A DNA stretch of 64,000 nucleotides from Candidatus Shapirobacteria bacterium (GCA_041659325.1 JBAZYN010000002.1:513-64512); one strand, 5' to 3'; positions 542 through 11,440 are shown, counted from the stretch's first letter. Notes: a model not told the origin generated them from the sequence alone. A program made the numbers and translations.

Positions 542-1603
542 TTATAACTGAATAATTTTGGCGGAAGGAAGGATAGAGACTGATTCCGGCTCGGAAGAAG
601 TGAATATTGTTTGATACCTTTGGCAAATTTTGCCAATGAGCTTTTGGTGGTTTTCGTCTAATTCCGAAAAGATATCGTCCAGAAGTAATATGGGTGATTC
701 CTGGTATTTGGTTTCAAGATAGTCTATTTGTCCTAGTCTAACGGTAAATGTGGCTAATCTTTGCTGGCCACGGCTGCCCCAACTGGCTAAATTCTTGTCG
801 GCAGAGTGAAAAACCGAATTATCAAAACTAAAATCATCGCGGTGAAGTCCGGATTGAGTGTAGCCACACTCAAGCTCCCGAGAATAATTTTGATCGATTT
901 TTTCTTGAGTAAGAAAAGAGGGGTAATAGTTTATGGAAATTGTGTTTATTTCCAGGTCGGGGTGATTTTGAAAAAAATTGTTGAGATGTTTTATGAAAGA
1001 TAGTCTAAAATCGTGGACTATTTTGTCATTTTTTGTCAGGGATTGATCCCAATAATAGAGTTCGGATTTATTATTTTTGCCACATCTGATTAGGTCTAAT
1101 AATTCGTTACGGTGTTTTAGGGCCCGATTGTATTGCGATAAGGCGGAGGAATAGCGCCATTCTGATTGCATAAATATTTCATCAAGGAAGTCGCGTCGAC
1201 GGCCGGGGGAGCCGGCTACTAGCCGAATATCGTCGGGGTGAAAAATTACAGTTTTAATCTGGCCGATAAACTCCTTCCGAAGTTTTTCGGCCCTATTGAT
1301 TAATAACTTACGGGTAACGGCAGTTTTGGCGGGATCGTTTGTTAGCTGAATCTCCAGTTCGCTGAGTTCATTGTTTGTAGACAGTTTACCCCTAACCGAG
1401 GAATACGACGAATCCCACATAATAAGTTTTGAGAGGGAGGTTGAGCGAAAACTCTTGCCGTGAGATAGGAGATAAATTGATTCCAGGATATTGGTTTTTC
1501 CGGAACCATTCGGACCAATAATGAGATTGGTTTTTGGATCGAATTCAAAAAGTGTTTTTTGATGAGACCGGAAATTTTCCAGGAGTAACTTGGTGAGAAA
1601 CAT
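542..1603 (-). CDS. recF: DNA replication and repair protein RecF
   Basis: N-terminal Walker A IIGPNGSGKTNILESI, C-terminal LLLDDIFSELD motif, and 353 aa length are typical of RecF. Confidence 0.9.
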   Translation of the reverse strand: MFLTKLLLENFRSHQKTLFEFDPKTNLIIGPNGSGKTNILESIYLLSHGKSFRSTSLSKLIMWDSSYSSVRGKLSTNNELSELEIQLTNDPAKTAVTRKLLINRAEKLRKEFIGQIKTVIFHPDDIRLVAGSPGRRRDFLDEIFMQSEWRYSSALSQYNRALKHRNELLDLIRCGKNNKSELYYWDQSLTKNDKIVHDFRLSFIKHLNNFFQNHPDLEINTISINYYPSFLTQEKIDQNYSRELECGYTQSGLHRDDFSFDNSVFHSADKNLASWGSRGQQRLATFTVRLGQIDYLETKYQESPILLLDDIFSELDENHQKLIGKICQRYQTIFTSSEPESVSILPSAKIIQL

Positions 1604-2625: not shown

Positions 2626-2802
2626 AATTTTGGTCCGGAGAGTATCGGTAGCGTGGAACGAATTATTTGCTAACCTAATTTCCATCTACGAAACTCTTAA
2701 GCCTATTATACCTGAAGAAAAATTAGCTTTGGATTATTCCTATTAGGGATTACCAGTATAGTAATAGAACTATAATATAAAGAAGTGTTAATAGGACTGT
2801 TA

Positions 2803-3111
2803 TCAATAATTTTCAAATACGTCATACCAAGGGTAGGTAAGCCGAAGCATTCTTAAGCGCCGGAGAGGTCTAAGTGGTCGGAGAGGTCTAAGTGGTCGGA
2901 GAGGTCTAAGTGGTCTTAGCTTGAAAGGTTCCCCATAACGTTTTACAATCCTGTCATCTGAACTAACGTAACCAATAAATGACATGTCATTTGCACTGTA
3001 AACTTCATTACCGTTCAAGATAAAACCAATCCAATTGCATTCGGTATCAAACAGATAGTTTCCGTTAATAAAAGCAATATAGTTACCTGATGTATTAAAG
3101 ATATATCTCAT
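2803..3111 (-). CDS. hypothetical beta-rich protein with N-terminal Gly/Asn/Tyr-rich repeats and an internal RPLRPL tandem repeat
   Basis: ORF of 102 aa with periodic G-N-Y/I-x-F motifs. It is co-oriented with the downstream ORF and overlaps it by 4 nt. Confidence 0.4.
   Translation of the reverse strand: MRYIFNTSGNYIAFINGNYLFDTECNWIGFILNGNEVYSANDMSFIGYVSSDDRIVKRYGEPFKLRPLRPLRPLRPLRPLRPLRRLRMLRLTYPWYDVFENY
2861..2914. repeat. perfect 18-bp tandem repeat x3 (cggagaggtctaagtggt), in frame within the ORF 2803..3111
   Basis: Three identical head-to-tail copies are visible directly. They encode (RPL)n on the minus strand. Confidence 0.95.
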
Positions 3112-3563
3112 TGTCTATCTCTTAATAAAGTAACCTGTGAATACAGATACAAAATACCCCCTATTACCATCATTACAATAGCACCCACAACCTGATAATC
3201 AGTCTTACCAATCGGAACACTGTGTTCAGAAGTTATAAAGTTAATTCCTATACCTATTAATATGGTTGCAAATAAATTTAAGACAACCGAATTGAGTGCT
3301 TTGTATTTATTAAGTTGGTAGTCGTTAGCGTATGTTTTTAAAGTCTCGTTCTCTGTTTCCAGTTGAGTAATTTTTGATTCGCAGTTTTTGGTATAAGTTA
3401 GAATTGTACTAGCTAATGGTCTATTGCCAGTTAAATCTTTAGCCTTAATCGTTCCTAAACTGGTTGGGTCAATACCTAAAGGACCGTTACTATTAGCCAA
3501 GGGAGGTGTGTTTGTTGTTTGAGGAGGAGTTACGGGGGGAATAATTGTTTTAGGTTTAGCCAT
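3108..3563 (-). CDS. hypothetical membrane protein (Pro/Thr-rich N-terminus, coiled-coil, two C-terminal TM helices)
   Basis: The two C-terminal hydrophobic helices and central coiled-coil suggest a holin- or phage-like architecture. No recognisable family. Confidence 0.4.
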   Translation of the reverse strand: MAKPKTIIPPVTPPQTTNTPPLANSNGPLGIDPTSLGTIKAKDLTGNRPLASTILTYTKNCESKITQLETENETLKTYANDYQLNKYKALNSVVLNLFATILIGIGINFITSEHSVPIGKTDYQVVGAIVMMVIGGILYLYSQVTLLRDRQ

Positions 3564-3686
3564 TGTAATTATTTTACTCCATAATGGATATTTTTCTGGT
3601 TAGTAGGACTAATAGCATAAAGTATTAATAGCTATTAATACTCTATGGATTACGTAGGATTTGAGTTTTTGTGATATAAATGGCGT

Positions 3687-3869
3687 ATGGATGACGTATC
3701 AGGTTTTTTATCTTTACTTTTCATATTGGCTTTGTATTTACTGCCAACCATTATTGCTTTTTCAAAGCGGAAAAAGAATAAAGTAGCCATTTTCTTAACT
3801 AACTTTTTATTGGGCTGGACGGTATTAGGCTGGATAATTTCTCTAATCTGGTCGGTAACAAACGATTAG
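3687..3869 (+). CDS. superinfection immunity protein (T4 Imm-like, two-TM)
   Basis: YLLPTIIAFSKRKKN...FLTNFLLGWTVLGWIISLIWSV matches the Imm superinfection-immunity family signature (LPxIIA, LGWT, GWIxxLIW). 60 aa. Confidence 0.7.
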   Translation: MDDVSGFLSLLFILALYLLPTIIAFSKRKKNKVAIFLTNFLLGWTVLGWIISLIWSVTND

Positions 3870-3958
3870 AGCTGGACTACTAAATTAAGTAGATGAGGGG
3901 AAATTGGTAGATAATGTATATAATCAGAACTAGAGTTAAGGGTTAAAAAAATAATAAT

Positions 3959-5881
3959 ATGGACACCTATCAGGTATTACAAAAAATCTTTAAAAACCCC
4001 GAACAGGACCTTTTCATGTTTGATGACCTTTCCCAAATAAATATATATGAAAAAGGTGAAGGGATGTTTTATGTAAAAGCAATTTCAAAACTAGATGAAG
4101 AGAAATTGGTCTACAACGCCAAGACTGGAAAATCCGCACCTGAAGAAATTGTTAGACAACTATATTTAGTGCAACTTACAAAGCATTATAAATACCCTAA
4201 AAGTCTTATTGAGCTTGAGAAGCAAGTAAATTTTGGACGTGAGCAAAAACGAGCAGATATAGTGGTTTACAGGCCTGACGGCATTACCCCGAAAATAATA
4301 ATTGAGGTAAAAGCTCCAAGTGAGGACAATGATGTCCAGCAGTTAAAATCATATTTGAATGCTGAAGGGGCACCCGTAGGGGTTGCGTTGAATGGTAAAA
4401 CACGCCTTATCCTATACAGACCATATCCAAAAGATTTTGATGACACACTTGACGATATTCCTGCCTCTGATGAAGGGATAGAAGATGTTTTAGCAAAACG
4501 AAAAACTCTTAAAGATTTGAGAGATATTGAGCTAAAAGAAGTAATTGAAGAATTGCAAGAGCTGGTATTGGCTAACTCCGGAGCTGATGTATTTGACGAG
4601 ATTTTTAAACTGATATACGCAAAACTATATGATGAAAAAGAAGCTTTAACACGACCCAATCAAGAACTGTTTTTTAGAAAAAGCCCGACAGGAAACCCAT
4701 TAGAAACAAAGCGAATTATTGATGACCTTTTTGAAGGAGCTAAGAATGAATGGCCCGATATTTTTTCTAAGGATGACAATATTAAACTACGGCCAGAACA
4801 TCTTTCAGTTTGCATAGGAAGACTTCAGGAGGCAAGACTATTTGGTTCTAACCTCCGTATCATTGATGAAGCATTTGAATATTTACTGCCTGATGTTGCC
4901 AAGGGAAAGAAAGGTCAATACTTTACACCTCGTGTGGTGATTGATATGTGTGTTCAGATGCTTAATCCGCAGAAAAAGGAGTATGTGGTTGATACCGCCT
5001 GTGGGAGTGCAGGCTTCTTGGTCCATACAATGCAGTATGTTTGGAAAAACTTGCCAACCCCTGAAACTCATAGAGAATATGCTAGCAGGTATCTCTTTGG
5101 GATAGATTTTGATGAGAAGTCAACCAAAATTAGCCGAGCAATTATGCTTATTGCAGGAGATGGTAAAAGCCATATCTACAAGACAACCTCACTTGACTCT
5201 AGAGAATGGCCTGAACGGCTTAAAAGCGACCTGAATGACTTAGGTTTGGTCAGACATTTTGATAATTACGATACAGATAGAAACAATAGAGAAACTTTCC
5301 AGCAATTAGGCTTTGATGTACTGCTAGCCAATCCCCCTTTTGCTGGCGAAATAAAAGAAAAGAATTTGTTGGCTCAATATGTTCTAGGTAAGAACAGTAA
5401 AGGAAAACTCCAAAACAAAGTTGAACGCCATTATCTGTTTATTGAGAGGAATCTTGATTTTGTAAAGGCTGGCGGTCGTCTGGCGGTTGTTTTACCGCAA
5501 GGTATTTTTAACAATACGGGTGATGAATACGTCAGAAAATATATAATGCAAAAAGCTCGTATATTGGCGGTTGTAGGCCTGCATGGAAATTCATTTAAAC
5601 CTCATACAGGTACTAAAACGTCAATCATTTTCTTACAAAAATGGCGTGATGATGAGCTAGACCAAGGGGGTAACCCCACTACTCAAGATTACCCGATTTT
5701 CTTTGCCACACAAAAACAGTCATTCAAAGATAATAGTGGTGATTATATTTATGAAAAAGATAATGATGGTCAGTTAATAAAAGATGAGAGTGGTAATCCG
5801 AAATATCTAAGCGACCTTGATGAAATTGCTGATGCTTTTGTTGCTTGGGGTAAGGAGCAAAGTTTAAGTTTCTTTAAATAA
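3959..5881 (+). CDS. hsdM: Type I-like restriction-modification N6-adenine DNA methyltransferase (HsdM) with N-terminal HSDR_N-like PD-(D/E)xK domain
   Basis: MTase motifs: GQYFTPRVVIDMCVQML, motif I VVDTACGSAGFL, motif IV LLANPPFAG. The N-terminal ~160 aa match the HSDR_N_2 pattern (RADIVVY...IIIEVKAP...GVALNGKTRLILY). Confidence 0.85.
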   Translation: MDTYQVLQKIFKNPEQDLFMFDDLSQINIYEKGEGMFYVKAISKLDEEKLVYNAKTGKSAPEEIVRQLYLVQLTKHYKYPKSLIELEKQVNFGREQKRADIVVYRPDGITPKIIIEVKAPSEDNDVQQLKSYLNAEGAPVGVALNGKTRLILYRPYPKDFDDTLDDIPASDEGIEDVLAKRKTLKDLRDIELKEVIEELQELVLANSGADVFDEIFKLIYAKLYDEKEALTRPNQELFFRKSPTGNPLETKRIIDDLFEGAKNEWPDIFSKDDNIKLRPEHLSVCIGRLQEARLFGSNLRIIDEAFEYLLPDVAKGKKGQYFTPRVVIDMCVQMLNPQKKEYVVDTACGSAGFLVHTMQYVWKNLPTPETHREYASRYLFGIDFDEKSTKISRAIMLIAGDGKSHIYKTTSLDSREWPERLKSDLNDLGLVRHFDNYDTDRNNRETFQQLGFDVLLANPPFAGEIKEKNLLAQYVLGKNSKGKLQNKVERHYLFIERNLDFVKAGGRLAVVLPQGIFNNTGDEYVRKYIMQKARILAVVGLHGNSFKPHTGTKTSIIFLQKWRDDELDQGGNPTTQDYPIFFATQKQSFKDNSGDYIYEKDNDGQLIKDESGNPKYLSDLDEIADAFVAWGKEQSLSFFK

Positions 5882-5882
5882 T

Positions 5883-7310
5883 ATGGACTGGCAAACTATT
5901 GTCAAAGATAACAATTTAGATGTATCGGTTATAAATAGCTCTGATTTAAACGAGGACATTAGATTTGAAGCTGAATTTTATCGTCCAGAATTTATTCAAA
6001 TTGAAAACTTACTTAAGAAGAGAGGGGTTGAAAGCTATGGTTCTTTTATTAAAAATATACAATGTGGCCCTTTTGGCTCAACAATTCTTTCTGATTCTTA
6101 TGTTGAAAGTGGGGCGTATTTAGCTAGGCCATTTAATTTAAGAAATTGCGTAATTACTGATGATAATAGAGTGTATATTAGTGAAGAAGATTTGAAGAAT
6201 AAAAAGTTAAATGAATATAATAATGGTGATATATTTTTTTCAAGGGTGGGAGAGATAGCTTGTAGTTTAGTTTGGGGATTTGGAGAAAAAGATAAAGTAA
6301 CAATAAGCCCTAATATAATCGCGGTTAAAACTGACACAAAAAAATTGTCTCCATTTTACACAGTAATATTTTTTGAAACAAAATATGGTAAAGGGCAGAT
6401 GCTTAGGGCTCAAATAGTAGTTGCTCAACCGACCATATCTACCCAGCTTATTAAATCTTTGCTTATACCAATACCCTCAATTAATTTACAAAATTCTATA
6501 GAAAAAATATACAGAGCTTATGTTGTGGCATTAAAAAAATCTGCAGATAATTATAGGGAAGCGGAGAAGCTATTCCTAAAAGAAATTGGCCTTTTTGATT
6601 ATGAAGTAGGTGGAAAAAATATCTCTATCCGAAACTTTATAGATTGTTTAATTGAAGACCGTTTTGATGCCGAATATTGGCAACCAAAATATGACGAAAT
6701 GTTTTGTAAGATACGAGAAAAACCTTATAAGAAAATTGGTGATATTGCGAATGTTGAGACTGGTCAATATATAAGCGAATATGTTGAGAAAGGAGCTGAT
6801 ACCAAATCTTTTATCAGGGGTACGGATGTTTCTCAATACGAGATTGATACTAATAGCTTGCTGTTTGTCCGCGTATCTGACCAAAAGAAAAAACATGTTG
6901 CCAAAAAAGATGATGTAGTAGTCGCCAGAGTAGGTTCTATAGGCTTATGCGCACGCATACAAGATAACCTAGTAGGCTCTACCATTAGTGATAATCTTAT
7001 TGCTATTAGAACCAAGGCAGATATTGAGATGAGCTCATATTATCTTACGGTATATCTTAATAGCTTCGTGGGCCAAGAGTTTATGAAGCGCTTAAGTAGG
7101 GGTAGTGTTCAACAGCGTTTAAATCAAGAAACTCTAAAAGAATTACCTGTCCCGATTCTTGATATTGATATTCAATACAAAATAGAGAAAATGGTAATTG
7201 ATGGTCATTTAGCGAAAAATGAAGCTAAGGACCTTTTTGAAAAAGCTAAGCGAGCAGTAGAAATATTTATTGAACAAGATGAAGAAAAGGCCTTGAGTTT
7301 TATTCAATAA
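5883..7310 (+). CDS. hsdS: Type I restriction-modification specificity subunit (HsdS), two target-recognition domains
   Basis: 475 aa with duplicated TRD architecture and conserved spacer/C-terminal helices (LPVPILDIDIQYKIEKMV...). Starts 2 nt after the hsdM stop. Confidence 0.8.
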   Translation: MDWQTIVKDNNLDVSVINSSDLNEDIRFEAEFYRPEFIQIENLLKKRGVESYGSFIKNIQCGPFGSTILSDSYVESGAYLARPFNLRNCVITDDNRVYISEEDLKNKKLNEYNNGDIFFSRVGEIACSLVWGFGEKDKVTISPNIIAVKTDTKKLSPFYTVIFFETKYGKGQMLRAQIVVAQPTISTQLIKSLLIPIPSINLQNSIEKIYRAYVVALKKSADNYREAEKLFLKEIGLFDYEVGGKNISIRNFIDCLIEDRFDAEYWQPKYDEMFCKIREKPYKKIGDIANVETGQYISEYVEKGADTKSFIRGTDVSQYEIDTNSLLFVRVSDQKKKHVAKKDDVVVARVGSIGLCARIQDNLVGSTISDNLIAIRTKADIEMSSYYLTVYLNSFVGQEFMKRLSRGSVQQRLNQETLKELPVPILDIDIQYKIEKMVIDGHLAKNEAKDLFEKAKRAVEIFIEQDEEKALSFIQ

Positions 7311-7360
7311 ATCACCAAAAAAGTTGGATTTCTGAAAAAACATGACTTTCCCCAATATAC

Positions 7361-7410
7361 TTGACACGCAAGATACTGGTTGGTAATATATGAATTAGAC
7401 AGTGGTGTCT
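7361..7410 (+). promoter_or_regulatory. sigma70-like promoter (TTGACA-17 nt-TAATAT) followed by inverted repeat AGACA-gtgg-TGTCT upstream of the MerR-like gene
   Basis: Consensus -35 and -10 hexamers with 17-nt spacing at 7361-7389. Palindrome at 7397-7410, then ATG at 7416. Confidence 0.4.
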
Positions 7411-7415
7411 AATTT

Positions 7416-8000
7416 ATGCTTTTTATTACTGATAATCTTCTAGCCAAGGCTTCGGAAACAATCAAGAAATGTAATCTTGGTGATATTTTCAATCAAAAAA
7501 AATACACGATAGCTGATACTCCCCTGTCATACAGGCAAGCTAATACTTTAGACAAGGACAAGTTACTAAATGATAATAGGACGGGTGGTAAAGGTTGGAG
7601 AAAATTTAGCTTTAAAGAATTGGTTTATATTGATATTGTCTTGGACCTTAAGAAATTTGGGGTTAAACATGAGCAATTAAAACAATTATGGCAATCATTC
7701 TTTAAAGAGCCTGATGGTTTATTGGTCCCTAGTTTAGTACCAAATAGAGGAGAATCGGAAATAGCAATTTCTAGCGTGTTTGGTGGTGTTGAAATGGTTC
7801 TTTGTATAGATAGTGATGGAGAAATATTATATTTTGACCCTCAATTTTCTACTAAGTATAGTCAAAGCTCCAAGCCACTGATACGGGTTAGTTTAAATGT
7901 GGTAATTAATAAAATTATTAAACTAATAATTAAAGAGGAATTACCGGTGGAGGATTCAATCAAAAAATTAATAGTTGAGTACAAACTGATAGAAAAATAA
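7416..8000 (+). CDS. MerR-family-like HTH regulator fused to an uncharacterised C-terminal domain
   Basis: YTIADTPLSYRQANTLDKDKLL...GWRKFSFKELVYIDIVLDLKKFGVKHEQLKQL follows the MerR HTH and dimerisation-helix pattern. Confidence 0.45.
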   Translation: MLFITDNLLAKASETIKKCNLGDIFNQKKYTIADTPLSYRQANTLDKDKLLNDNRTGGKGWRKFSFKELVYIDIVLDLKKFGVKHEQLKQLWQSFFKEPDGLLVPSLVPNRGESEIAISSVFGGVEMVLCIDSDGEILYFDPQFSTKYSQSSKPLIRVSLNVVINKIIKLIIKEELPVEDSIKKLIVEYKLIEK

Positions 8001-8220
8001 TATGAATCCCAAAAAAATATTAAATATTGAAAATTTACATTCAATAATTAATGGACATTTTACGCCACTATTTAAGCTCAGTTTACAAATTTTAGTCTAA
8101 AAATAATAAGTAAGAATAAATAAATAATTATCAATTTAGGCCAAGATTGTAACTCCTTTACTTAGGCAAGGCCGGCTGACAGCTACTAGTTCTTTTTGAA
8201 AGAATTGAGAAGGAACCAAT

Positions 8221-8239
8221 CAACACATAATTTGTGTTG
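8221..8239. promoter_or_regulatory. perfect palindrome CAACACA-taatt-TGTGTTG upstream of small ORF and recombinase
   Basis: 7-bp arms with a 5-nt spacer, seen directly. It lies in a 230-bp AT-rich intergenic region. Confidence 0.3.
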
Positions 8240-8287
8240 GTTGGCGAGTCATTTCTTAACCACACACAGATAGTGAGGTTTAAGAAT

Positions 8288-8458
8288 ATGACAGTTAATA
8301 GAGCAAGAAAAATACTAGGAAATATGGCAAAAGACTACTCTGACGAGCAGGTCATGAACTTGGTTAAGCAAGTCAAAGCTCTAACTGATATTTGTGCAGA
8401 AAATATAAATAAAAGGATGAAAAACGAAGGAGTTAGTTTTTTATATAAAGTAAAATAA
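8288..8458 (+). CDS. small hypothetical protein immediately upstream of serine recombinase (possible directionality or regulatory factor)
   Basis: 56 aa from an internal ATG (the track ORF is 8234..8458). Its stop is 5 nt before the recombinase start. Confidence 0.3.
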   Translation: MTVNRARKILGNMAKDYSDEQVMNLVKQVKALTDICAENINKRMKNEGVSFLYKVK

Positions 8459-8463
8459 AAGAA

Positions 8464-10212
8464 ATGATAAGAGCAATTATATTGGCAAGAGCATCTGACC
8501 CAAAACAAATTATCATGGGTGATACGTTGGACGACCAACTTTATCTCTGTAAGAAGCTCATAGTTGCAAGAGGGTGGGATTTAGCTGAAGTGTTTCCCTG
8601 TGTAGAAAGTGGCCGAAAGAAGGAAAAAGAATACTTTTGGAAAATCTATAAATATTGCGAAGAGAGACAAAATACTCCAAAAAAGATTGACTACTTGGTT
8701 GTGAAAAATTTGAGTAGATTTACGAGAGGTGGCGGTGCCGAGTATCTTTATCTTAAAAAACTTTTAGCTGAAGTTGGAGTAAAGGTTCAGGATACACTTG
8801 GAACCGTAGGAGATGAAATAAATACTTTGGGTGACTTAGGATTTAAATACGAGTGGAGCATTCAATCCCCCACAGAGGCCATTGAAGTGAGTCAAGCCGA
8901 GGGAAATTTGCAATACGTGAGAAATCAACTAACACAGATGATTAGTGGATGTATTCGCTATATCCAAAAAGGATATTGGAATGGTCCGGCACCTTTTGGG
9001 TTAAAAAACAAAAAGGTGGAAACTCAAGAAGATGGAATAAGGAACATTCTTGCTGAAAATACTATTGAAAGTCATTTTGTTAAGCGAATTTATGAGATGA
9101 GAGCTAGTGGAGTATCTGACAAGGAAATTGCTGAAAAAATAAATTTGATGGGATTTAAGACTAGGTTAATGGCAAAAAGAGACCCAATAACTAGGATGAA
9201 GATTGGAACAAGAGGGGGAGTTCCGCTTACCGTTAAGAAAATCCAAGAGTGGGTAGTTAATCCTATTTATTGCGGAGTCATTGTTGCTTTGTGGACAAAG
9301 TATCAACCTATCAAGGCAGTTATGTTTGACGGATTGGTTGATATAGAGACTTTCAACTCTGCTAATAAAGGTAAAATTTTTATATCAAAGAATGTTGATG
9401 GTACTTATTTGATTAAACGAAATATTAAATGGGCGAATATAAATCAACCCGATAAAAGAATGAGGTATAACCCGTTTTACCCGTACAAAGGCATTCTACT
9501 GTGCCCTGTATGCAAAAAAGAGGTCAAGGCGAGTGCTTCAACTGGCCATTTGGGAACTAAATATCCTGCTTATCACTGTGACAGGAATCACCATAAAAGA
9601 TGGCACGAAAAGCGAGAGGATGTTCATAAAATAGTTGAGAACTTTACAGAGAACCTAAAATTTTCTGAAGAATTTACAAAACTGTTTCAAGAAGTGTTTG
9701 TGGAGTCTTGGCAGGAAAAAAGACAAGTTGCCATGGTTGACAGTGAAAGGGCCGAAAACTACGTTTTAGAGCTTGTAGTGAAGCGAAAAAGCATATTGGA
9801 GACAATCAAAACAACTGATAGCTTGCCTGTCAAGAAGGCATTAGAAGAAGAATTTGAGGCAATTGATAGTGAAATAGAAAAAGCAAGAAGCGGGAGAAAT
9901 GGGGTGGAGAGAAAAGAGGTGGATATTAAGCATATTTTGAAATATGCGGGATATTTAGTGGAACACCCAAAGGAACTACTGATAGATACGGACAACATGA
10001 TAAATCAGAGGTATCTTTTCGGATTGGTATTTGACACCCTTCCAACAGTTGATGAATTAGTTAGTGGAACCGCCAAATTACAGCCAATATTCCAATTAAA
10101 GGGAAATGAAAATATGTCAAAAAGAGACTTAGTCCAGCGGGCAGGAGTCGAACCTGCTCAAAATGGTTTTACAGACCATCACCTAACCGTTCGGTCACCG
10201 CTGGTTATTTAA
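8464..10212 (+). CDS. large serine recombinase (phage-type integrase)
   Basis: Resolvase catalytic N-terminus IILARASDPKQ, recombinase domain, and zinc-ribbon CPVCKK...YHCDRNHH. The C-terminal 24 codons are antisense to tRNA-Tyr. Confidence 0.85.
   Translation: MIRAIILARASDPKQIIMGDTLDDQLYLCKKLIVARGWDLAEVFPCVESGRKKEKEYFWKIYKYCEERQNTPKKIDYLVVKNLSRFTRGGGAEYLYLKKLLAEVGVKVQDTLGTVGDEINTLGDLGFKYEWSIQSPTEAIEVSQAEGNLQYVRNQLTQMISGCIRYIQKGYWNGPAPFGLKNKKVETQEDGIRNILAENTIESHFVKRIYEMRASGVSDKEIAEKINLMGFKTRLMAKRDPITRMKIGTRGGVPLTVKKIQEWVVNPIYCGVIVALWTKYQPIKAVMFDGLVDIETFNSANKGKIFISKNVDGTYLIKRNIKWANINQPDKRMRYNPFYPYKGILLCPVCKKEVKASASTGHLGTKYPAYHCDRNHHKRWHEKREDVHKIVENFTENLKFSEEFTKLFQEVFVESWQEKRQVAMVDSERAENYVLELVVKRKSILETIKTTDSLPVKKALEEEFEAIDSEIEKARSGRNGVERKEVDIKHILKYAGYLVEHPKELLIDTDNMINQRYLFGLVFDTLPTVDELVSGTAKLQPIFQLKGNENMSKRDLVQRAGVEPAQNGFTDHHLTVRSPLVI
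10133..10204 (-). tRNA. tRNA-Tyr(GTA), class I (short variable arm), C1-G72
   Basis: Manual fold: acceptor CCAGCGG/CCGCTGG, anticodon stem ATGGT/ACCAT, loop CTGTAAA (anticodon GTA), T-arm GCAGG-TTCGACT-CCTGC, discriminator A73. D-stem is only 3 bp. Confidence 0.55.
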
Positions 10213-10588
10213 CTAAATATTTTTTATATTTTGGCCCCAGAACTAAATTGTATTTTGCAACAAGTTCCAGGCTAGGAATAAAATATTTTTCGAGATTTTG
10301 GGTAACGACAAAAAGATAGTCACAGTTTGCCGTGTCAAATTTTTTAATTTTTCCAACACTGGTTCTATTGCCACCTTTTACCGACAAATTGACTTCGTAA
10401 CTTTTTCTTTTATAGCTACAAGTTTTAACCTGGACTCTCCCCAAATGGCTTCCGTCATCAATGATTAAATCATAGTCTTGACTATCGGTGAGAGGGATAC
10501 CAACTGTGTATCCTACGCTTGTAAAATAGCCAATAGCTACACCCAATCCCATATCTCCTTGTTTTTTAGAGTTTTTAAAGAGCCCCAT
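10205..10588 (-). CDS. small PD-(D/E)xK / Mrr-cat-like restriction-endonuclease-fold protein
   Basis: GDMGLGVAIGYF...DYDLIIDDGSHLGRVQVKT resembles the Mrr catalytic core (D...Q-x-K). 127 aa, abutting the tRNA-Tyr 5' end. Confidence 0.4.
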   Translation of the reverse strand: MGLFKNSKKQGDMGLGVAIGYFTSVGYTVGIPLTDSQDYDLIIDDGSHLGRVQVKTCSYKRKSYEVNLSVKGGNRTSVGKIKKFDTANCDYLFVVTQNLEKYFIPSLELVAKYNLVLGPKYKKYLVK

Positions 10589-10669
10589 TAACAGTATGAT
10601 ACACCGTTAATGACCACTGGTAAAATGTAGATGATTATAGCAGATTTTGTTAACTGGTAGAATAATAAT

Positions 10670-11440
10670 ATGCGTAACATCAGAATAATTTCTTGGAATG
10701 TGGCCGGAATGAGGGCGGCGATAAAAAAGGGATTGTGGGATTTTGTAAAAACAGACAACGCAGAAATATATTGTCTTCAAGAGGTGAAAGCATATCCTTC
10801 GCAAGTGCCAATGATAGAGTGCCCCGGGGATTATATCCCCTATTGGAACCCGGCTAAAAAAGCCGGCTATTCCGGGGTAATGACATTGACGAAGATGGAA
10901 CCAAAAAAAGTAATTGTGGGAGACAGGGATAGCGATTGGGACGACGAAGGAAGGGTTTTGATAACTAAATTTGATGAATTTACCCTGCTAAATGTTTATT
11001 TTCCGAACGGCAAAAAGGATAAAGGAAGACTGCAATATAAAATGGATTTTTATGAAAATTTTTTGAAATATATAATCGAATTGAGAGAGCGGGGTGAAAA
11101 GGTTATATTTTGCGGTGACGTAAATACCGCCCATAATGAGATTGATTTGGCGAGACCAAAAGAAAACGAGTTGGTTTCCGGATTTTTGGAGATTGAGAGA
11201 AAATGGATGGATAAATTAGTAAAAAATGGTTTTGTTGATACCTACAGAATATTTAATAAGGACAGAATCGGATATAGCTGGTGGAGTCAAAGGGGCGGGG
11301 CCAGAAAAAGAAACGTCGGGTGGAGGATTGACTATTTCTTTGTCTCAGAAGAACTAAAAGATAATGTAGTTGGCGCTTTTATATTGCCGGAGGTGGTGGG
11401 GAGTGATCATTGTCCAGTTGGGATGGAGTATCGGATTTGA
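10670..11440 (+). CDS. xth: exodeoxyribonuclease III (AP endonuclease)
   Basis: IISWNVAG, CLQEVK, GDVNTAHNEIDL, WRIDYFFVS, GSDHCPV are ExoIII/APE family motifs. Confidence 0.9.
   Translation: MRNIRIISWNVAGMRAAIKKGLWDFVKTDNAEIYCLQEVKAYPSQVPMIECPGDYIPYWNPAKKAGYSGVMTLTKMEPKKVIVGDRDSDWDDEGRVLITKFDEFTLLNVYFPNGKKDKGRLQYKMDFYENFLKYIIELRERGEKVIFCGDVNTAHNEIDLARPKENELVSGFLEIERKWMDKLVKNGFVDTYRIFNKDRIGYSWWSQRGGARKRNVGWRIDYFFVSEELKDNVVGAFILPEVVGSDHCPVGMEYRI

Follow-up and report, generated by a model that had tools for sequence, protein, structure and literature searches.

The 64-kb window analysed here (the whole stretch of 64,000 nucleotides, in whose coordinates all positions are given) comes from the genome of a Candidatus Shapirobacteria bacterium, a member of the Candidate Phyla Radiation (CPR). 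Our results indicate that positions 2633-10135 are very probably a mobile integrative defence island of 7.5 kb, whose own large serine recombinase (LSR) has placed it at the 3' end of a tRNA-Tyr gene and whose attachment site, attP, lies inside the LSR gene. Codons 1-557 of that gene are encoded by the element, codons 558-582 (QRAGVEPAQNGFTDHHLTVRSPLVI) are the antisense of tRNA-Tyr, and the original last 37 codons lie 7.5 kb away at the other island end. We hold this structural description of an island with a split recombinase gene with high confidence; the regulatory role considered below is speculative.

Results

The recombinase gene and the gene setting of the island

Genes were inventoried from a listing of open reading frames (ORFs), a tRNA scan (ARAGORN, Rfam) and family searches (Pfam, NCBIfam, PADLOC, PHROGs). 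In its integrated state the LSR ORF occupies positions 8464-10212 on the plus strand and encodes 582 amino acids with Resolvase and Recombinase domains, in agreement with the first-pass annotation of this DNA, which had been made from the sequence alone. That annotation had the recombinase abutting a tRNA; the ORF instead runs antisense across the entire tRNA-Tyr gene (anticodon GTA, 10132-10204, minus strand; ARAGORN, Rfam 58.9 bits), which accounts for about its last 25-27 codons. The detached 3' tail exon, 37 codons (VRRVSVAWNELFANLISIYETLKPIIPEEKLALDYSY) and a TAG stop, was found at 2633-2746 on the plus strand. The location of the interval between QNG1/recF and xth, as first described, was borne out by the ORF listing and the family searches.

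Occupied and empty sites at tRNA-Tyr

A database search identified LSR homologues at 65-78% identity. The same LSR (65-73% identical) is located at tRNA-Tyr in five lineages (L007, L008, L009-12, L015 and L016-17), and in all five it reads into the tRNA gene. The right flank consists of xth, YgjP, rpiB and PGK, as in the window, in four of these lineages, and recF lies to the left of the island in three; in L007, the island is at tRNA-Tyr in another host neighbourhood. Together with the window this makes six independent islands, each of 6.3-9.9 kb, and the 6-10 kb of cargo between the island ends differs from locus to locus: a helix-turn-helix (HTH), reverse transcriptase, HNH and YaaC module in L008, reverse transcriptase with DUF4145, trypsin-like and CAP genes in L016, a LexA-like gene with small HTH genes in L015, and an HTH_17 protein with an 806-aa protein in L009.

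Empty sites were found in the two closest relatives, both of which lack the LSR. In L018 (xth 78% identical), recF, a gene for a 236-aa protein, tRNA-Tyr, tRNA-Cys and xth follow each other and the island is absent, and in L023 (xth 86% and PGK 78% identical) a non-recombinase sequence stands beside tRNA-Tyr. The comparison with related genomes that the first-pass annotation had proposed for its element thus gave two unoccupied and five occupied loci, and conserved synteny of the whole interval with no indel at the tRNA was not what these genomes showed. Across the occupied loci the LSR is 65-73% identical to that of the window, as against 55-61% for host PGK, 41-50% for YgjP and 43-62% for recF. 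It exceeds recF in conservation at four of the five loci; in L015, rpiB (61%) and recF (62%) come close. Empty sites in closer relatives, together with an LSR more conserved than most host genes, argue for a mobile insertion.

Alternatively, the recombinase could be fixed and domesticated, an ancient and now immobile insertion inherited vertically, with the gap between recF and tRNA-Tyr acting as a hot spot for defence genes. The synteny of the locus recF...tRNA-Tyr-xth-YgjP-rpiB-PGK in five LSR-carrying genomes would fit such a history, as would the decayed inner junction present in L009 and the independent movement of cargo relative to the LSR (75-81% identity for a pair of cargo genes described below, the Bflower/transmembrane (TM) pair, against 65% for the LSR). 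We consider it quite improbable, however, given that both closest relatives have neither LSR nor island, that L007 carries its island in a different host neighbourhood, that most host core genes are less conserved than the LSR, and that purifying coding selection acts on the tail exon, which has no use until it rejoins the body of the gene.

Island ends and attachment sites

Homology among the six islands starts precisely at GTCC(A/G)G, and the sequence leftward of it is unrelated host DNA. In the window this point is the attL core GTCCGG (2633-2638, plus strand), with the host B arm, formed by the end of the queuosine-salvage gene QNG1 (1654-2625, stop codon 2623-2625), to its left. Counterparts of the 111-nt non-coding stretch that starts at 2633 are present, at 84-87% identity, in L008 and L009 at the far end of the island, and a tblastn search with the translated tail exon located it at the left end in all the islands, always on the LSR strand. 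At the right end, the LSR coding sequence meets the tRNA at the attR core GTCCAG (10132-10137, plus strand), which corresponds to nt 69-74 of the tRNA (CTGGAC on the tRNA strand); the GTCC common to attL and attR corresponds to nt 71-74 (GGAC). The island accordingly spans 2633/2636 to 10131/10135. The element had initially been drawn at 2650-10212, which has to be corrected to ends at 2633-2636 and 10132-10135, the tRNA being host DNA.

The core common to attL and attR measures 4-6 nt, and only GTCC(A/G)G is common to all six islands; a search for a tRNA-derived direct repeat at the left end, or for long repeats at the island ends, found none. A short core without long direct repeats is as expected for a serine recombinase. 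Comparison with the empty-site copies in L018 and L023 shows that integration leaves the tRNA-Tyr sequence unchanged and replaces only its 3' trailer. The predicted attP junction of the circular form reads ...AAAAAGAGACTTAGTCCGGAGAGTATCGG..., and the predicted empty attB junction reads ...CTAGAATTTTGGTCCAGCGGGCAGG....

The P' arm of the element (GTCCGGAGAGTATCGGTAGCGTGGAACG) resembles the B' arm provided by the tRNA (GTCCAGCGGGCAGGAGTCGAACC); the first ~30 nt of the tail exon are also the P' half of attP, a mimic of the tRNA acceptor and T-arm. P' contains a copy of the T-arm motif CGG.AGGA.T.GAAC, set 5 bp further away from the crossover than the tRNA original, with GAAC at +24 in P' and at +19 in B'. 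This concerns the right half-sites only; the left half-sites showed no clear distal motif. In the Listeria integrase, the motif bound by the zinc-ribbon domain (ZD) lies 5 bp nearer the centre in attB than in attP (Rutherford et al., PMC3783163), and the same 5-bp rule has been restated for SPbeta (PMC11722253). The offset between P' and B' matches this canonical relation of attP and attB in serine integrases. We also considered whether the tRNA-like piece at the left end is a displaced 3' end of the host tRNA, and this idea was rejected because the piece is conserved across islands in different hosts, including its 5-nt insertion, and because it runs on into 100 nt of element-specific sequence.

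The tail exon as the end of the recombinase gene

When the island ends are joined, the LSR frame stays open for 37 further codons (...DLV RRVSVAWNELFANLISIYETLKPIIPEEKLALDYSY*), giving a protein of 593 amino acids with attP within the reading frame at codon 557. Four lines of evidence identify the tail exon as the genuine end of the LSR gene. The first is coding selection. Among seven copies of the left-end block, only the LSR frame is open, and the tail exon is 81-83% identical in amino acid sequence to the blocks in L008 and L016. In the part of the block beyond the att half-site (codons 11-35), differences at the three codon positions number 70:103:221, and pN/pS is 0.36 in the LSR frame and 1.71 and 0.94 in the other two. 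In five of the seven blocks the stop codons lie no more than a few codons apart, and the L007 copy and the outer L009 copy are ~12 codons longer. The second is the contig L013, which contains an uninterrupted P-P' junction (...EDLVQWVGFKWNELLQNLEDIFETLRPITPMEVNY*) collinear with the composite reconstructed for the window. The third is the tail itself, which recurs at the C-terminus of full-length homologues (31-36% identity), V557, W564 and N565 being invariant. The fourth is that synonymous divergence along the reconstructed LSR gene, ~0.75-0.95 in codons 1-480 and 0.40-0.48 from ~490 through the tail exon, is uniform across the junction, indicating that the two sides behave as one unit. By these data attP is intragenic in the LSR gene, and integration exchanges the tail of the encoded protein. 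Tails in the integrated state consist of antisense tRNA and downstream host DNA and range from 7 to ~65 residues.

Several observations weigh against this interpretation. L013 is the only contig of a close relative with an uninterrupted gene, and its LSR is a decayed copy without ~90 N-terminal residues. The invariant W-N pair (TGGAAC) overlaps the GAAC motif, so that its conservation may reflect recognition of the DNA and not a need of the protein. The AlphaFold2 (AF2) model of the 593-aa LSR has a confidence score (pLDDT) <50 for residues 548-593 and gives no clue to the role of the tail. A dyad partner of P' was not evident by eye in the P or B arms. Metagenome scans for the circular junction of this particular element and for its B arm plus core, the signs of an excised copy or of an empty site in the same population, returned 0 matches.

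Some of these points would also suit a left-end block that acts as a DNA signal only, namely a non-coding LSR binding site with a promoter or terminator, the enzyme then ending in the tRNA-antisense tail or shortly ahead of it. The first ~30 nt of the block are indeed an att half-site, the codons for W-N coincide with a T-loop-like GAAC motif, synonymous divergence is lowered around the site, and AF2 predicts no confident fold for the tail. It is nevertheless quite improbable that the block is nothing else: beyond the att site third-position substitutions dominate, and the low pN/pS is confined to the LSR frame; no other frame is open, and the stop position is near-constant in five of the seven blocks; uninterrupted proteins with homologous tails exist in databases; and the tRNA-coded tails vary widely in length and end wherever the host sequence dictates. 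We therefore retain the tail exon as the 3' end of the LSR gene.

Two further features of this region were observed. The drop in synonymous divergence among the six LSR genes spans ~100 codons (~9930-10135 and 2633-2746), which is much wider than a 50-bp att site; constraint on DNA or RNA and recombination between elements are candidate causes. The L009 island contains two tail exons, at 1818-1949 and 3566-3670 of that locus. In the outer copy the GTCCAG core is intact and the amino acid identity to the L007 type is 91%; in the inner copy the core is decayed (GCCTTG). The pair points to nested insertions, to insertions in succession, or to a replacement by recombination.

Recombinase family and distribution of C-terminal tails

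The LSR matched the resolvase catalytic domain (PF00239, 33.6 bits, cutoff 23.3), with R9, S11 and Q15 invariant among 16 homologues, and the Recombinase domain (PF07508, 35.8 bits). C347, C350 and C372 are also invariant and lie in a Cys-rich zinc-ribbon region, for which Pfam returned no zinc-ribbon match. The AF2 model shows the strands of a beta-ribbon (355-383) and long helices (402-483). By its domains and by the logic of its att sites, the enzyme is classed as a large serine recombinase.

To learn about the distribution of the two kinds of tail, an exhaustive search was made (E<=1e-30), yielding 201 clusters at 50% identity and ~106 full-length representatives, whose tails were classed by regular expression and inspection, so that the counts are approximate. 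In ~64% of the ~106 representatives the C-terminus is a translated antisense tRNA T-arm, with all three frames represented (types G-x-E-P, x-R-T and D-S-N-P), and ~22% end in an intact W-N tail. A similar split was seen among 84 word-index matches. Names were attached to few of the homologue matches: Pacebacteria, Microgenomates and Saccharimonadales. No hallmark of a phage or plasmid was seen in the surroundings of L022, a homologue with an intact tail. In this LSR clade, most database sequences thus end in translated antisense tRNA and host DNA downstream of it, an annotation artefact that would mislead alignments and the placing of domain boundaries.

A conserved 56-aa protein encoded upstream of the recombinase

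A 56-aa protein (8288-8458, plus strand; ORF from 8234/8288) ends 5 nt upstream of the LSR start codon. Its motif M..(R/K)A(R/K)KILGK.A..YTDEQ is conserved upstream of the LSR in L007, L008, L009, L015 and L016, and in a more distant form in L022. AF2 predicts a helical hairpin (pLDDT 89); library searches gave no family match, PDB no significant fold match, and a homologue search only a truncated self-match. This two-helix protein is a candidate accessory or directionality factor.

Cargo genes

The cargo starts with two genes on the minus strand, encoding a Bflower-domain repeat protein (2803-3111; PF21784, 34.8 bits) and a coiled-coil/transmembrane protein without family match (3108-3563), which form an operon, their ORFs overlapping via ATGA. 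These are the two repeat or membrane proteins listed in the first-pass annotation. The Bflower gene contains a perfect tandem repeat of 18 nt x 3.1 (2861-2915, Tandem Repeats Finder), which encodes (R/P)L repeats and is a possible contingency or length-variable region. The pair (2803-3563) recurs in the L015 island (6249-6991) at 81% and 75% identity, whereas the LSRs of these two islands are only 65% identical and their host PGKs 61%. The cargo pair being more alike than the LSRs, cargo modules appear to have been exchanged among islands.

The small membrane protein that had been likened to T4 Imm is indeed encoded at 3687-3869 (plus strand) and matched Imm_superinfect (PF14373, E 8e-19, 67.7 bits, cutoff 27.9) and phrog_1039 (E 1.7e-23). 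Its presence, the similarity of the LSR to the PHROG 'integrase' type and weak GP3_package and LexA-like matches in L015 would be compatible with a temperate phage that has lost its structural genes, but such an origin is very improbable, as the six islands of similar size retain intact ends, LSR and tail exon and carry no capsid, tail or terminase-large genes, and a scan of IMG/VR with the family alignment gave only one distant match (25%). Family searches for capsid, tail, portal and terminase genes found none in the window island, as had been noted at first, or in the five related islands; of the two origins then offered, integrative element or prophage remnant, our data favour the integrative element and not the remnant.

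Next follow, on the plus strand, a methylase of 640 aa (3959-5881) and a specificity (S) subunit of 475 aa with two target-recognition domains (5883-7310; PADLOC Specificity_I, E 4e-56; PF01420). The methylase ORF fuses an N-terminal HSDR_N_2 domain of the PD-(D/E)XK type (aa 61-168, E 3e-22, with D...ExK residues present) to an N6 adenine methylase (N6_Mtase). It matches the Type I profile MTase_I (PADLOC PDLC03034) end to end (E 4.7e-187), and its best PDB sequence match is RM.BsaXI, a Type IIB enzyme, a match that covers the methylase core only. MADS profiles scored below the NCBIfam cutoffs (MAD2 290.7 bits against 720; MAD5 146.9 against 400), and other MAD genes are not present, arguing against membership in MADS. 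A Type I system is likewise not indicated: hsdR, which encodes a helicase/translocase and nuclease subunit, was found neither in the island nor in the whole 64-kb window. The pair had been described as R-less and Type I-like; a methylase and an S subunit are present and hsdR is lacking, but a nuclease-free reading does not hold given the HSDR_N_2 domain in the methylase, so that 'R-less' is literally true and misleading. From these matches, a Type IIB-like nuclease-methylase with an S subunit is the better reading of this restriction-modification cargo. Like BsaXI and BcgI, it would combine a nuclease-type domain and a gamma-class N6-adenine methylase in one polypeptide, with a separate S subunit bearing two target-recognition domains; unlike them, its closest profiles are labelled Type I M and, below cutoff, MADS MAD2/MAD5.

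The last cargo ORF, orf194 (7416-8000, plus strand), is not conserved in other islands. It had been proposed to be a MerR-like regulator with its own consensus promoter, neither of which was upheld: it matched nothing in Pfam, NCBIfam, PADLOC or PHROGs, and the promoter-like site (7361-7389) is one of 34 in the region, where shuffled sequences give 29.9 +/- 5.2.

Flanking sequences and tRNA genes

To the left of QNG1 lies recF (542-1603, minus strand). Exact-protein look-ups for the window LSR and QNG1 gave no match, and a contig scan with QNG1 detected only distant (32-40%), non-syntenic relatives. Within the island, directly after the stop codon of the tail exon, the island alignment reveals a conserved non-coding block (2747-2785, plus strand), which raises the question whether it may serve as a terminator or regulatory site of the circular form. 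GC content is slightly lower in the island (0.30-0.35) than in the flanks (~0.38-0.43). Apart from the tRNA, an Rfam scan returned only a chance match to U12.

On the right, an ORF resembling PDDEXK_5 and homing endonucleases (10205-10588, minus strand; PF11645, E 2.8e-17; PADLOC HEase, 3.9e-6; region 10205-10613) sits within a 408-nt insertion that separates tRNA-Tyr from the upstream region of xth (10670-11440). In L023, the tRNA directly adjoins the same xth upstream sequence without this insertion. The stop codon of the PDDEXK_5 ORF touches the 5' end of tRNA-Tyr, and the tRNA may therefore be co-transcribed with it. Bacterial tRNA-Tyr normally has a long variable arm; in the window, and also in L007-L023, it is short (73-75 nt), with a short variable region.

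Fragments of tRNA genes were seen at two other loci. In the empty-site genome L018, the stretch between tRNA-Tyr and tRNA-Cys contains two tandem 57-nt tRNA-Cys-like pseudo-fragments (2078-2195), composed of a 3' acceptor/T-arm start and a degenerate anticodon arm, which may be scars of other tRNA-targeting elements. In L008, the host B arm to the left of attL (2783-2822) holds a tRNA-Tyr-like anticodon-arm fragment (GGGGTTACAGACCC), which hints at an older, rearranged copy of the tRNA.

Discussion

A model for integration and its possible consequences

The gene in the circular form encodes the 593-aa LSR with its conserved W-N tail. In the model that we propose, this enzyme would recognise the tRNA acceptor and T-arm as the B' half of attB and cross over within GTCC, leaving the tRNA intact. 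Integration strands the 37-codon tail at the left end of the island, and the body of the gene at the right end reads through antisense tRNA-Tyr, yielding a protein predicted to keep its catalytic, recombinase, zinc-ribbon and coiled-coil parts and to lose the conserved tail. The integrated gene would stand in convergent, head-on transcription with the tRNA, and excision would restore the full gene. The cargo would consist of defence-type modules exchanged among islands.

We speculate that the change of tail and the convergent transcription probably modulate the activity, expression, stability or directionality of the LSR. Serine integrases are prized because their direction is set by a separate factor. 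Fusion of the directionality factor to the C-terminus of a serine integrase reverses its direction (PMC11722253), which makes a C-terminal effect in the LSR plausible. One tentative and rather unlikely form of such an effect is a built-in state sensor, in which the 593-aa enzyme of the circular form integrates, and the integrated form is either competent for excision or silent or unstable until induced; excision competence would then amount to an effect in cis like that of a recombination directionality factor, possibly with the 56-aa partner. If this were true, throughout a clade of CPR serine integrases the topology of the recombinase gene would itself specify directionality. In any case, a clade in which integration rewrites the C-terminus of the enzyme itself offers a direct test of C-terminal influence on directionality, and serine integrases that read the tRNA acceptor/T-arm as attB, with a tRNA-mimic attP and the 5-bp rule, would allow many att pairs to be predicted. 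The islands also document the movement of defence genes among CPR genomes, in which mobile elements are poorly known.

Comparison with known systems

The serine integrases of phages and of integrative and conjugative elements (ICEs), such as Bxb1, phiC31, Listeria A118/LI and SPbeta SprA, resemble the window LSR in their Resolvase domain with R9 and S11, Recombinase domain, zinc-ribbon region and long coiled-coil insert, in short att sites with few core bases in common and no long direct repeats, and in the 5-bp outward displacement of the distal motif in attP relative to attB (PMC3783163); similarity to solved LSRs was below detection in a sequence search. The characterised integrases mostly target protein-coding genes, whereas the window LSR targets a tRNA gene. 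It further differs in having attP in its own ORF, with a C-terminus that differs between the free and integrated states, in an att site with little P/P' dyad symmetry, and in its CPR hosts and 6-10 kb cargo islands, which are neither phages nor ICEs. A large survey of LSR att sites (PMC10083194) does not mention tRNA, and our literature search, which had partial coverage and is no proof of novelty, found no account of a serine integrase that has attP within its own gene and inserts at a tRNA gene.

Tycheposons (bioRxiv 10.1101/2020.12.28.424599) and classical tyrosine-integrase islands are likewise small, modular islands at tRNA genes, patchy and mosaic, with adaptive or defence cargo. Their integration restores the tRNA by means of a long duplicated segment, and their recombinases are mostly of the tyrosine type, whereas the window island has its probable crossover at tRNA nt 71-74 and no tRNA duplication. 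In the integration-dependent immunity of the mycobacteriophages BPs, Brujita and Charlie (PMC3694055), attP also lies near the 3' end of a gene, and integration alters the C-terminus of its product and thus its stability or activity; there, a tyrosine integrase splits the repressor, which loses a C-terminal degradation tag, whereas in the window the recombinase itself is split.

The closest parallel in gene topology is provided by the SSV-type 'suicidal' tyrosine integrases of archaeal viruses and plasmids (PMC7253208, PMC8371274), which target tRNA genes, have attP within the integrase ORF, and undergo an integration that partitions the gene between the element ends and an excision that restores it. 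They belong to another domain of life and to an enzyme family that is unrelated to the serine recombinases, as is its chemistry, and their gene is cut into two inactive pseudogenes. The window LSR, by contrast, loses only its last 37 of 593 codons, and its recognisable catalytic and DNA-binding domains all stay in one open frame, the 557-codon body. The split recombinase described here would be the counterpart of these archaeal enzymes in bacteria and among serine recombinases.

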